64,000 nt of DNA from Escherichia coli (GTDB taxonomy: Bacteria > Pseudomonadota > Gammaproteobacteria > Enterobacterales > Enterobacteriaceae), in the NCBI RefSeq assembly GCF_003334305.1, contig NZ_QOWS01000007.1; one strand, 5' to 3'. The notes beneath the pieces were generated by a model, which had not been told where the DNA came from, made no database searches, and saw only the letters and a list, made by a program, of their open reading frames with translations. Positions 24,449 through 26,348 of this stretch are shown here, piece by piece. Made by a program: the position numbers and the translations under genes. How positions within the stretch are numbered: position 1 is the stretch's first letter; each line of letters starts with the position of its first letter.

Positions 24449-25876
24449 TTATTTCGTGTTTTTCGACGACGGCAATTCAATGCGGAAACAAACGTCTTGC
24501 CCGCTCTCGTCGACCAGATACAGTTCCCCTTGCATACGGCGAATACAATCCCTGGCAATGCTTAATCCCAGACCGCTGCCCTTCACCGCCCCTTTTCGCT
24601 GGTGGCTTCCTTGAAAAAAGGGTTCGAAGATCATGGCGCGTTCCTCTTGCGGAATGGGTGTGCCTGTATTGATGACATCAATATAAACCCGTGCACCATG
24701 TAAGCTGCTGCGAAGGCAAATGTTACCGGATTCAGCCCCGTAGTGCACCGCATTGGAGTAAAGATTATCCAGTACGCTCATCAGCAGCATTGGCTCCGCC
24801 AGGCAAGCTGTTGCTTTGAGATCGACGTCGGTATGCATCATTTTAGCCCGTGCGGGCAGGCTATGAGCAGAAACCACTGTCTCCACCAGCGGTGCTAATT
24901 CAACATTCTCCAGTTCCACCGCACTGTCCGCCTGTTTACGGTTGTAATCAAGCAGTTGTTCGATCAGTTTTTGCAAATTGCGGCTGCTGCTATCAAGAAT
25001 GCTCACCACCTCTTTTTGCTCTGGCGTAAGCGGCCCGACAACCTGGTCAGCCAGTAATTCAGTGCCCTCGCGCATACTCGCCAGTGGCGTTTTTAATTCA
25101 TGAGATAAATGTCTTAAAAATTGATGGCGTTGGGATTCCAGCCATGACAGGCGCTCACTTAACCAAAGAATACGTTGCCCAACCGAGCGTAACTCGCTCG
25201 GTCCACTGAACGAAACGCTATTGCCCAGAGAACGCCCTTCCCCCAGACGGTTGATCATGCGCTCGATATTTTTCACCGGCCCGATAATCATCCGCGTGAA
25301 AAGTAGCACCATCACCAGACTCACCAGAAATAGCACCAGCGATTGCCAACCAAAATATTGCCCACGTTCGGCGATTTCACGCTGAAGTTGCTGCCCACGA
25401 GAGAACACCACTGTGCGCGTGGCCTGCACCATTTCGGTATTGGCACTGGCAAAGGCTTCAAGACGCGCGGCGGCGGCAGCATCGGGACCACTGTTGTTAC
25501 ACTGAAGTTGGGCCAGATTGTTCAAATCCTGACGCAATGCCTGGTAAAGTTTATCGTCTGGCAGTACGCCTGCGTGGGCATCGAGCATTTCGCTGTAACG
25601 CTTGCGCTGGCTTTGATAAACCTTCGCAAGCGTAGGATCGTCCAGCACGCAATACTGACGGTAGCTACGCTCCATCTCCAGCGCCGCGTTGGTCATCGCT
25701 TCACTACGCCGGGCATCAATAAGCGTAGTGCGGTTAACCAGCGCCGCCTGATCGCTAAGCGCATTCAGGCTTTGCCAGGCTTGCCATGCCAGCACCAACA
25801 GGGGTAGTAGAATTAGCAAAAATGCCAGCATTACCAGTTGTCGTAATGAGCGGGGAAAAACAGGCCAGCGTTTCAA
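24449..25876 (-). CDS. glrK: Sensor histidine kinase
   Basis: H-box HELKTPLA; a 475-aa protein requires a TTG start at 25874-25876 (…LKRWPVFPRSL); the upstream ATG of the track ORF would run into the glmY terminator. Confidence 0.8.
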   Translation of the reverse strand: MKRWPVFPRSLRQLVMLAFLLILLPLLVLAWQAWQSLNALSDQAALVNRTTLIDARRSEAMTNAALEMERSYRQYCVLDDPTLAKVYQSQRKRYSEMLDAHAGVLPDDKLYQALRQDLNNLAQLQCNNSGPDAAAAARLEAFASANTEMVQATRTVVFSRGQQLQREIAERGQYFGWQSLVLFLVSLVMVLLFTRMIIGPVKNIERMINRLGEGRSLGNSVSFSGPSELRSVGQRILWLSERLSWLESQRHQFLRHLSHELKTPLASMREGTELLADQVVGPLTPEQKEVVSILDSSSRNLQKLIEQLLDYNRKQADSAVELENVELAPLVETVVSAHSLPARAKMMHTDVDLKATACLAEPMLLMSVLDNLYSNAVHYGAESGNICLRSSLHGARVYIDVINTGTPIPQEERAMIFEPFFQGSHQRKGAVKGSGLGLSIARDCIRRMQGELYLVDESGQDVCFRIELPSSKNTK

Positions 25877-25934
25877 GGTGTTACTCTCGTCAGACGCGAA
25901 TAGCCTGATGCTAACCGAGGGGAAGTTCAGATAC

Positions 25935-26118
25935 AACAAAGCCGGGAATTACCCGGCTTTGTTATGGAATAAGGCGGTGCCTAACTCGACGTTTCGCCCG
26001 ATGGTTGATATAGCTACGCTGATATCAGAAGTTGGACGGCAGGCACCTTGTTGTGCGTCATTCGAATTTTATGTAGCACGTCCCGAAGGGGCTGACATAA
26101 GTCGGTGAATGAGCCACT
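25935..26118 (-). ncRNA. glmY: Small regulatory RNA GlmY
   Basis: Minus-strand sequence AGUGGCUCAUUCACCGACUUAUGUCAGCCCCUUCGGGACGUGCUACAUAAAAUUCGAAUGACGCACAACAAGG… ending in an AAAGCCGGG/CCCGGCUUUG hairpin; matches GlmY as I recall it. Confidence 0.85.
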
Positions 26119-26129
26119 GCTTACTATTA

Positions 26130-26145
26130 TGCAGTAACTGTGCCA
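26130..26145 (-). promoter_or_regulatory. Sigma54 (-24/-12) promoter of glmY
   Basis: Minus strand reads TGGCAC-agtta-CTGCA, with the GC of the -12 element 12-13 nt upstream of the inferred glmY 5' end. Confidence 0.8.
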
Positions 26146-26234
26146 ATAAAGAAAATAGTTTGGTAACGTACTGATTATACGTCGCTTTGAGGGGTTTATG
26201 GCTTCTCCGTTATTTGAATGTAAATCAGCCACTG

Positions 26235-26348
26235 TGTCGCTAAAAAGAGACAACTTAAGATAAACTTATTAGATAATATTAAAATCAATGAGTTAAGTGT
26301 CGCCAGAAAGCGACACGGTAAACCACCCATTGTCGTGATTTACAGACA
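26235..26348. promoter_or_regulatory. Three TGTC-N10-GACA upstream activator sites (GlrR boxes) for the glmY promoter
   Basis: Perfect TGTC-N10-GACA at 26235-26252, 26298-26315 and 26331-26348, located 100-230 bp upstream of the sigma54 promoter. Confidence 0.8.

Follow-up and report, generated by a model that had tools for sequence, protein, structure and literature searches.

Introduction

The small RNA gene glmY of Escherichia coli K-12 MG1655 (b4441, formerly tke1 or sroF; positions 2691157-2691340) was characterised, together with its promoter region, by Urban and Vogel and by Reichenbach, Göpel and Görke, and both its mechanism and the architecture of its regulatory sites have been published (PMC3045617, PMC4152352, PMC2377431, PMC6075780). 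The primary source for the footprints and the mapping of start sites, Reichenbach 2009 (Mol Microbiol 74:1054), is cited here through later papers of the same group. According to PMC3045617, in K-12 the response regulator GlrR binds three TGTCN10GACA motifs lying more than 100 bp upstream; ABS2 and ABS3 are essential for the sigma-54 activity of glmY and ABS1 is dispensable. The promoter region further contains two IHF sites which flank ABS3 and are required for sigma-54 activity, site 1 being essential, as well as a sigma-70 promoter exactly superimposed on the sigma-54 promoter, with a common start site (PMC3045617). The expression of glmY is up-regulated on sigma-54 overexpression, and the 17-mer TTGGCACAGTTACTGCA constitutes the sigma-54 ChIP-seq site OS24 assigned to this gene (PMC4591121). 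The processed RNA ends at nt 147-149 in 3' RACE (PMC2377431), and transcription of the neighbouring glrK (qseE) starts 25 bp upstream of its annotated start codon (PMC6075780). Co-transcription of glmY with qseEGF has been described by some authors in pathogenic E. coli and Proteus (PMC8745638).

Two types of systems are closest to glmY. One is GlmZ (RF00083, clan CL00011), an sRNA homologous to GlmY and resembling it in its 5' and central stem-loops; in Yersinia, Salmonella and others, the sigma-54/GlrR/IHF promoter of glmZ is laid out as that of glmY (PMC3045617). E. coli glmZ, by contrast, lies between aslA and hemY, is transcribed by sigma-70 only, and carries the glmS base-pairing site, which GlmY lacks. 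The other comprises enhancer-dependent sigma-54 promoters with IHF-assisted looping, such as glnAp2/NtrC and pspA/PspF, in which remote activator sites stand in tandem more than 100 bp upstream of a -24/-12 promoter, with an IHF site in between; GlrR shares with NtrC-type activators the receiver, AAA+ sigma-54-interaction and HTH domains. Unlike these, the glmY promoter drives a small RNA instead of an mRNA and coincides with a sigma-70 promoter of the same start (PMC3045617).

In this work, we analysed the purL-glrK spacer in a stretch of 64,000 nucleotides of E. coli DNA, hereafter the window, for which an initial annotation, read from the raw sequence, had proposed a complete glmY regulatory module.

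Identity and context of the locus

The purL-glrK spacer is almost certainly the canonical E. coli glmY gene with its full transcriptional control region, and no observation spoke against this reading. The locus is already known: it is textbook glmY, placed between purL and glrK exactly as in K-12. The stretch is E. coli chromosome, the region being present in 5,426 of 5,426 complete E. coli genomes, and the locus whose annotation was used displayed 100% identity over the searched 801 bp. RefSeq automatic annotation carried no glmY label in the non-K-12 records inspected: the match overlapped features of purL and qseE alone there, or was listed with 'none'. The features of the locus are the following, with coordinates of the window, strand and basis:

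22247-23581, minus: glrR (qseF), CDS of a sigma-54-dependent response regulator, 444 aa (NF011695 GlrR equivalog and annotation)
23571-24284, minus: qseG, lipoprotein CDS (NF007997, 357 bits, cut-off 234, and annotation)
24449-25876, minus: glrK (qseE), sensor histidine kinase CDS, 475 aa (annotation of the matched locus and K-12)
25874-25888, minus: glrK ribosome-binding region, Shine-Dalgarno-like GAGAG at 25888-25884 and TTG start at 25876-25874
25901-25936, minus: glrK's own sigma-70 promoter (hexamers read from the sequence)
25935-25963, minus: glmY intrinsic terminator hairpin (MFE and centroid fold)
25935-26118, minus: glmY primary transcript, 184 nt, +1 at 26118 (base-for-base alignment with K-12 glmY b4441)
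25971-26118, minus: GlmY*, the active form after processing, 148 nt (coextensive with the Rfam GlmY_tke1 match)
26126-26131, minus: sigma-70 -10 element CATAAT, overlapping the sigma-54 promoter (read from the sequence; PMC3045617)
26130-26145, minus: sigma-54 promoter TGGCAC-N5-CTGCA, TGGCACAGTTACTGCA (pattern scan of both strands)
26164-26176, minus: another match to the IHF consensus, AATCAGTACGTTA, -58 to -46, on the promoter side of ABS3 (exact consensus)
26235-26252, minus: predicted GlrR activator binding site 3 (ABS3, proximal), TGTCTCTTTTTAGCGACA, -134 to -117 (exact motif)
26283-26295, plus: IHF site candidate between ABS2 and ABS3, AATCAATGAGTTA (exact WATCARNNNNTTR match)
26298-26315, minus: predicted GlrR activator binding site 2 (ABS2), TGTCGCTTTCTGGCGACA, -197 to -180 (exact motif)
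26331-26348, minus: predicted GlrR activator binding site 1 (ABS1, distal), TGTCTGTAAATCACGACA, -230 to -213 (exact motif)
26349-26375, minus: purL intrinsic terminator, stem-loop 26375-26354 and T-run, the upstream boundary of the module (terminator scan)

The genes of the GlrK/GlrR system were expected directly downstream, and there they are: glmY lies on the same strand as, and immediately upstream of, glrK(qseE)-qseG-glrR(qseF) in the annotation of the matched locus and in K-12, and a GlrK N-terminus follows glmY on the 3' side in 26 other loci among the matches listed. Both QseG and GlrR pass their NCBIfam equivalog cut-offs, GlrR scoring 982 bits over its full length against NF011695 (cut-off 763), with NtrC, ZraR and AtoC as its next-best family matches. 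For GlrK, the NCBIfam matches listed above cut-off were histidine-kinase family models, none of them GlrK-specific; its identity therefore relies on RefSeq naming, synteny and K-12 identity. Two open reading frames overlapping glmY and its promoter, 25878-26108 (plus, 76 aa) and 26014-26253 (minus, 79 aa), were considered mechanical, since the RNA and the conserved DNA sites explain the region.

Compared to K-12, the sigma-54 core, CATAAT, the three ABS, the IHF-1 match, the terminator, and the -10, Shine-Dalgarno and TTG elements of glrK are all identical. The window has G where K-12 has C at -2 (26120) and, within an internal loop, U where K-12 has A at GlmY nt 54 (26065). Six further substitutions fall between elements, one of them immediately upstream of ABS2 and the other five in the stretch that separates ABS3 from the proximal IHF match. 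Outside the module, upstream of the purL terminator, the REP element is 18 bp longer. These differences are neutral-looking, and substitutions within the species avoid every element.

For the comparison across species, 298 Gb of genome contigs were scanned with the pattern GAGTNAGGCNCCGCCT (14 specified bases), which returned at least 120 loci, mostly chance occurrences in unrelated phyla; 27 loci were retained after blastn against glmY, an arbitrary species sample skewed towards Enterobacter and Citrobacter.

The GlmY RNA

The proposed GlmY on the minus strand at about 25935-26118 was borne out by the covariance model, by identity to K-12 and by the published processed 3' end. In an Rfam scan of the whole window, the GlmY_tke1 covariance model (RF00128) matched over model positions 1-163 of 163, not truncated, and scored 147.1 bits (gathering score 33, E 5e-34); clan competition retained GlmY over GlmZ. 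On this outcome and on the glmY-specific synteny, a GlmZ assignment of the window RNA was rejected. The primary transcript is identical to K-12 b4441 at 183 of 184 nt. The Rfam match ends at nt 148, in agreement with the published processed 3' end, and the terminator ends at nt 184.

The transcript has a minimum free energy of -64.2 kcal/mol (z = -5.5 versus shuffles). An RNAalifold consensus of 21 species among the matches listed contains 39 pairs, 5 of them with compensatory changes, and 6 of 819 cells are non-standard; the structure, made up of a 5' stem-loop, a central multi-branch stem-loop and the terminator, is conserved, with modest covariation support obtained from simple pair counts, most pairs being invariant. 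The terminator consists of a 12-bp stem, AACAAAGCCGGG / CCCGGCUUUGUU, closed by the loop UAAUU; among five E. coli alleles and E. albertii, the loop shows a single substitution and the stem none. A simple terminator scan did not report this hairpin, though it is evident in the fold, because its U-tract pairs with the A-tract and is counted into the stem. The plus-strand terminator matches of that scan, 26189-26207 and 26103-26119, and a single plus-strand promoter-like match at 25786-25813, were at or near shuffle expectation.

The glmY promoter and its activator sites

The proposed sigma-54 promoter is the sole match to TGGCAC-N5-YTGCA on both strands of the 64 kb (0.14 expected), and its sequence is identical to the published ChIP-seq site (PMC4591121). 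Counted from 26118, the GG and GC of the -24 and -12 elements (consensus TGGCAC-N5-TTGCW) occupy -26/-25 and -14/-13, and the Rfam GlmY match has its 5' end 12 nt from the promoter. A sigma-54-like element occupies the same position in 21 of the 22 loci with an alignable glmY 5' end among the matches listed, and the superimposed CATAAT is present in most Escherichia, Citrobacter and Enterobacter loci of this set. By identity of these elements with K-12, the promoter would be sigma-54-dependent.

Exactly three TGTC-N10-GACA boxes occur in the 64-kb window (0.64 expected), all upstream of glmY, within 114 bp and directly upstream of the single sigma-54 match; ABS1 begins 2 nt past the purL terminator T-run. 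The three boxes named by the initial annotation thus exist where it placed them, and they correspond to the GlrR binding reported for K-12 (PMC3045617), whereas their description as immediately upstream and perfectly spaced was inaccurate: they lie 117-230 bp upstream of +1, and their start-to-start spacing is unequal, 33 and 63 bp, close to 3 and 6 helical turns. As all three sequences are identical to those of K-12, they would be bound by GlrR in this strain as well. Among the matches listed, ABS3 lies at -132 to -135 in most genera and ABS2 at -195 to -198 across loci; the ABS1-ABS2 distance is 31-33 bp in 23/23 loci, and ABS2-ABS3 is 63 bp in 20/21 (range 62-63). Thus, more than 20 enterobacterial genera share the sigma-54 element, the ABS positions and their 33/63-bp spacing, and the N10 spacers vary.

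Regarding IHF, the candidate at 26283-26295, with a core ATTGATTTT that is invariant, E. albertii included, is probably the published distal 'IHF site 1'. The match at 26164-26176 may represent the second published site.

Translation start and promoter of glrK

Translation of glrK from the TTG at 25876-25874, giving 475 aa, is supported by annotation, the published transcription start and comparative analysis. This codon is the start used by RefSeq and by the K-12 annotation. Among the matches listed, TTG is found in 26 of 27 sequences and GTG in the remaining one, a GAGAGT block is conserved with its GAGAG 8-12 nt upstream of the TTG, and variation by codon position downstream of the TTG (0.12/0.04/0.39) displays the periodicity of codons. 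The initial annotation had favoured the same TTG on the argument that the ATG of the open reading frame track would overlap the glmY terminator; the conclusion stands, but its premise was not reproduced, the overlapping start being a TTG (25939).

The longest open reading frame, 24449-25939, begins at that TTG (25939-25937), followed by a second one at 25936-25934; the frame has a stop at 25951-25949 and is open from 25948. Initiation at either upstream TTG, which would lengthen the protein by 21 or 20 aa and make the CDS overlap the glmY terminator, agrees with this open frame and with the mechanical call, yet it is extremely improbable: the published start of glrK (qseE) transcription, about 25901, falls downstream of both codons (PMC6075780), RefSeq and K-12 annotate 25876, and the 12 triplets preceding it lack codon periodicity among the matches listed (0.38/0.45/0.41). 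Moreover, the distance from glmY to the start differs between species by non-multiples of three, and the loci of Kluyvera, Kosakonia and several Enterobacter have in-frame stops 3-11 codons upstream of the TTG with no start in between. A GlrK started upstream would carry the N-terminal peptide ...LYLNFPSVSIRLFASDESNT. The first ATG in this frame lies at 25831-25829, 45 nt beyond the TTG, and corresponds to Met16 of the annotated protein. Initiation there would employ the commonest start codon, and it too must be regarded as very improbable, given that codons 1-15 vary mostly at third positions and encode a conserved peptide (KRW..FPRSLRQLV), that Citrobacter youngae, Citrobacter sp. FP75, Kluyvera, Pseudescherichia and Pectobacterium have Thr or Ile in place of Met16, and that the conserved GAGAG is placed for the TTG instead.

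Upstream of the TTG, glrK's own sigma-70 promoter comprises a -35-like TTGTAT (25936-25931), a -10 TAGCAT (25913-25908), conserved across genera among the matches listed, and an inferred transcription start at the A at 25901. The likely -35 overlaps the tail of the glmY terminator, and the gap between glmY and glrK is 58 nt, the same as in K-12.

Discussion

All the sequence features named by the initial annotation, with the exception of the overlapping ATG, are present where it located them and far above chance, and its four interpretive claims hold, as supported by our results; the interpretation was incomplete and in places loosely argued. Its 'complete module' was right in the parts it named and omitted three that are published: the overlapping sigma-70 promoter, the IHF sites and glrK's own sigma-70 promoter. 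The circuit, as it claimed, is well described, being published for K-12. The observation is right, yet ordinary, and it leaves known biology unchanged.

The idea that the motifs arose by chance in a spacer rich in AT, next to a decayed or non-functional GlmY/GlmZ-like relic, finds some room in the shuffles of the window, 2 of 100 of which yielded three TGTC-N10-GACA matches anywhere in the 64 kb and 14 of 100 one sigma-54-like match. Such a reading has practically no likelihood when the arrangement is considered, with three boxes in 114 bp followed by the sole sigma-54 match, 12 nt from a 147-bit Rfam match that clan competition keeps as GlmY rather than GlmZ; further, the elements are conserved in position and spacing across genera among the matches listed, invariant across divergent E. 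coli alleles, and identical to the experimentally characterised K-12 locus. Another proposal concerns the boundary between the two genes, which share a strand and are separated by the short gap mentioned above: glmY and glrK-qseG-glrR might form one operon, with glrK expressed mainly by read-through of the glmY terminator and autoregulation as a result, as a glmY-qseE-qseG-qseF operon is reported for Proteus mirabilis (PMC8745638). We consider it quite unlikely for this locus. In K-12, autoregulation was not observed, and a lacZ fusion that included all of glmY along with the glrK promoter was as active as the short promoter fusion (PMC6075780); moreover, the hairpin that terminates glmY is strong, with 12 bp in its stem, and the conserved TAGCAT lies 3' of it. 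On the basis of the co-transcription described in pathogenic E. coli and Proteus, read-through may add to the independent glrK promoter in some backgrounds. In addition, the location of the likely -35 inside the terminator tail could couple glmY termination with glrK initiation.

With glmY under its own control region and glrK under a separate promoter, the mechanism known from the K-12 literature would be expected here, since the elements are identical; this extends to the binding of GlrR and IHF, the dependence on sigma-54, the start sites, RNA processing and the sequestration of RapZ. The kinase GlrK (QseE) and the lipoprotein QseG would activate GlrR (QseF), encoded three genes downstream; phosphorylated GlrR would then bind the three TGTC-N10-GACA sites from -117 to -230, IHF would bend the DNA lying between, and the GlrR oligomer would drive open complex formation by sigma-54 RNA polymerase at TGGCAC-N5-CTGCA, with transcription from 26118. 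The weak sigma-70 promoter (-10 CATAAT), exactly overlapping, would sustain a basal level of transcription from that position as well. Ending at the hairpin 25963-25935, the 184-nt RNA would be shortened to about 148 nt, with its 3' end then near 25971, and the processed GlmY would act as a decoy for the adaptor protein RapZ; sequestration of RapZ would spare GlmZ from RNase E, and GlmZ would activate translation of glmS, which lies outside the window, when glucosamine-6-phosphate is low. The glrK mRNA would start about 25 nt before the TTG, from its separate sigma-70 promoter just after, and partly overlapping, the glmY terminator.

The spacer upstream of glmY varies considerably, with identity among E. 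coli alleles down to 89.5% (strain MFDS1019527); in E. albertii, glmY itself is 97% identical, most of the sequence beyond about -12 differs, and GACG forms the end of each of the three boxes. It is a tentative and rather doubtful suggestion that this spacer is a hot-spot of recombination or divergence that leaves nothing but the protein-binding elements constant; if true, strain-specific spacer alleles, including that of the window, could set different GlrR/IHF-dependent glmY output.

The locus serves mainly as a quality check, in which reading of the raw sequence recovered a non-coding regulatory module invisible to tracks based on open reading frames. The unusual TTG start of glrK and the constrained spacing of the GlrR sites (33/63 bp) gain independent support from the comparative data, which are not experimental, within a circuit that constitutes a well-studied control point of cell-envelope precursor synthesis (GlmS) and of virulence regulation in pathogenic E. 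coli.

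Locus organization and equivalence to K-12

Read 5' to 3', the minus strand of 25860-26460 opens with the stop codon of purL, after which come a REP-like palindrome and the terminator of that gene. Three inverted repeats of the form TGTC-N10-GACA follow, then AT-rich DNA and TGGCACAGTTACTGCATAAT. A highly structured segment of 184 nt with a 12-bp hairpin at its end starts 12 nt past TGGCACAGTTACTGCATAAT, and a 58-nt spacer separates this segment from TTG AAA CGC TGG..., the opening of the glrK (qseE) frame. The main elements are as follows:

26375-26354, minus: purL terminator, stem-loop followed by a T-run (terminator scan)
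26331-26348, minus: ABS1, distal GlrR activator binding site
26298-26315, minus: ABS2, second GlrR site
26283-26295, plus: IHF-1, exact IHF consensus match between ABS2 and ABS3
26235-26252, minus: ABS3, proximal GlrR site
26164-26176: exact IHF consensus match between ABS3 and the promoter
26130-26145, minus: sigma-54 promoter element
26131-26126, minus: sigma-70 -10 element CATAAT, sharing bases with the sigma-54 -12 element
26118-25935, minus: glmY
25936-25931, minus: weak -35 element TTGTAT of glrK
25913-25908, minus: -10 element TAGCAT of glrK
25901, minus: putative glrK transcription start (A); this start and the -10 and -35 elements are placed by our reading of the sequence

The window belongs to the Escherichia coli chromosome: 801 bp of this region (25700-26500), used as query, found a match in each of the 5,426 complete genomes of the species in RefSeq, with 100% identity to strain M8 and many others. 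In K-12 MG1655, the same interval is annotated with purL (b2557), the ncRNA glmY (b4441, 184 nt) and glrK (b2556, 475 aa), with qseG, glrR (qseF) and glnB beyond it. Pairwise alignment placed K-12 glmY at 25935-26118 with a single substitution, at 26065 (nt 54, an internal loop of the Rfam structure), and the K-12 glrK start at TTG 25876-25874. Compared with K-12, the window allele carries G at -2, U at nt 54 and six inter-element substitutions, as well as, outside the module, an indel of 18 bp in the REP element; from the sequence, these differences give no reason to expect changed behaviour. Every defining feature that could be tested was found, and the remaining ones are documented in the literature for identical sequence; what the window holds is the very glmY locus of K-12 in a different E. 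coli strain.

The REP-like palindrome GCCCGGATGCGGCATTTACGCCGCATCCGGC (26398-26428) sits in the stretch from the stop codon of purL to its terminator, and the indel (~26402-26419) corresponds to its central part, missing in K-12.

The GlmY RNA

The Rfam model GlmY_tke1 (gathering score 33) matched 25971-26118 (minus) end to end over 148 nt with 147.1 bits (E 5e-34), being the sole sRNA call there after clan competition with GlmZ in a whole-window Rfam scan; together with the K-12 alignment, this bears out the proposal of GlmY on the minus strand in the initial annotation. The processed, abundant form of GlmY displays 3' RACE ends at nt 147-149, the primary transcript being 184 nt long (PMC2377431). 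The 184-mer folds at -64.2 kcal/mol versus -44.2 ± 3.6 for shuffled sequences (z = -5.5), with the expected 5' stem-loop, a branched central domain and a terminator hairpin at 25963-25935. In an RNAalifold consensus of 21 GlmY sequences, 39 pairs were recovered, 32 invariant, 2 varying on one side and 5 with compensatory double changes, and unpaired cells numbered just 6 of 819.

Promoter elements and activator sites

The pattern TGGCAC-N5-YTGCA occurs once in the 64 kb, at 26130-26145 (minus; expected 0.14), in agreement with the TGGCAC-N5-CTGCA promoter originally described. The three GlrR boxes also proved to be present, as the only TGTC-N10-GACA matches in the 64 kb (0.64 expected), all inside 114 bp. 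Published ChIP-seq data assign the 17-mer TTGGCACAGTTACTGCA to glmY as a strong sigma-54 site (PMC4591121). A weak sigma-70 promoter with the same start site overlaps the sigma-54 promoter exactly in E. coli (PMC3045617). Of the eight places in the window that fit the IHF consensus WATCARNNNNTTR without mismatch, two fall in the control region and may correspond to the published IHF sites. GlrR of the window scored 982 bits on NCBIfam NF011695 (cut-off 763).

Conservation across enterobacteria and within E. coli

A pattern scan of one-genome-per-species contigs, filtered by blastn, yielded at least 27 enterobacterial glmY loci. Among the loci compared, the boxes lie at about -230, -197 and -134 from the glmY 5' end and the sigma-54 element at -27, positions that hold in Escherichia, Citrobacter, Kluyvera, Enterobacter, Kosakonia, Pluralibacter, Siccibacter, Superficieibacter, Pseudescherichia and others. 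The ABS1-ABS2 interval is 33 bp in 15/23 loci, 32 bp in 7/23 and 31 bp in 1/23, and the ABS2-ABS3 interval is 63 bp in 20/21, about 3 and 6 helical turns; thus, the "perfect spacing" initially attributed to the boxes stands as helical phasing, but the intervals are unequal. The outer four bases per half-site were used to pick boxes, and their conservation is partly by construction. The N10 is variable yet non-random in 23 loci (position 5 G/T, position 6 mostly C, centre A/T-rich), which suggests a longer palindrome, about TGTCKC-N-W4-N-GMGACA. ABS3 begins with TGTT rather than TGTC in most genera, the perfect E. coli form being a minority (7/21).

Polymorphism of the 232-bp control region (26119-26350) within E. 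coli is moderate, most genomes being 95-99% identical to the window (minimum 89.5%). In K-12, O157:H7, ST131 and the 89.5% allele, the half-sites, sigma-54 core, CATAAT, IHF-1 core, terminator stem, glrK -10, Shine-Dalgarno and TTG are unaltered.

In Escherichia albertii (locus L013 of the scan, 9700-9952, against window 26119-26360), glmY and the glrK leader share ~97% identity with their E. coli counterparts. The similarity breaks off sharply at the promoter, and beyond about -12, going upstream, most of the control region is different. All three E. albertii boxes end in GACG, not GACA, and the third also begins with AGTC.

The glrK start codon

The start codon of the longest glrK ORF is a TTG (25939) rather than an ATG, and the sole nearby in-frame ATG (25831) is downstream; the premise of an ATG overlapping the glmY terminator, invoked in the initial annotation, was therefore not reproducible. 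Its choice of TTG 25876-25874 is nevertheless right. This codon is used by RefSeq (WP_001297612.1) and K-12 (NP_417051.2, 475 aa), the published glrK transcription start falls between it and the upstream TTGs (PMC6075780), and the homologous codon is TTG in 26/27 sequences and GTG in 1/27. Several genera have in-frame stops 3-11 codons upstream, without alternative start between, and the glmY-to-start distance differs between species by non-multiples of three. Variability by codon position is 0.12/0.04/0.39 over codons 1-15 versus 0.38/0.45/0.41 in the 12 triplets upstream, save the conserved GAGAGT Shine-Dalgarno block. A start at ATG 25831 is disfavoured because Met16, which it encodes, is unconserved among the loci compared. 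The glrK -10 is kept across genera, and its weak -35 sits inside the glmY terminator tail.

In five loci (L024, L050, L027, L101 and L117; Enterobacter sp. Ag1 and R1, Klebsiella sp. BIGb0407 and Pectobacterium), an in-frame ATG precedes the conserved TTG by 9 nt, or three codons (GAGATGAAGCTATTG...), and glrK of these genera may start at that ATG instead.

Other features of the window

The window also contains rpoE (start 44808, minus strand), the second published GlrR/QseF sigma-54 target. Three relaxed TGT-N12-ACA motifs (starts 45399, 45209 and 45135; region 45135-45416) lie 327-591 bp upstream of its ATG, out of 19 in the window; filtering the 700 bp upstream of rpoE for a strict TGGCAC-N5-TTGCA-like element with up to 3 mismatches found none. 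Further non-coding features that would escape an ORF track scored above the Rfam gathering score:

41802-42633, plus: AsrC, antisense to rseC
38804-39018, minus: rncO leader
35316-35392, plus: OhsC antitoxin sRNA
49100-49142, minus: ES036 sRNA
60868-60983, minus: 5S rRNA
61078-63980, minus: 23S rRNA

Discussion

Since the element sequences are identical, the published K-12 picture applies directly to the window. GlrR would bind the three TGTCN10GACA motifs, which lie over 100 bp upstream, and activate the sigma-54 promoter (PMC3045617); ABS2 and ABS3 are essential, ABS1 is dispensable, and IHF must bind at the sites on either side of ABS3 (PMC3045617; PMC4152352). Processed GlmY would then sequester RapZ, shielding GlmZ from RNase E, and the spared GlmZ would activate glmS.

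The initial annotation is correct, slightly incomplete and already known: the elements it described were confirmed, but the module it called complete lacked the overlapping sigma-70 promoter, the IHF sites and the glrK promoter. In the non-K-12 records inspected, glmY carries no label in the automatic RefSeq annotation (PGAP); among those listed, nothing but purL and qseE is annotated under the match of the 801-bp query, and no feature at all under that of the 232-bp control region. The strain M8 record has no glmY ncRNA feature, whereas that of K-12 MG1655 has b4441. The value of the finding lies in the correct annotation of a feature that is invisible to ORF tracks.
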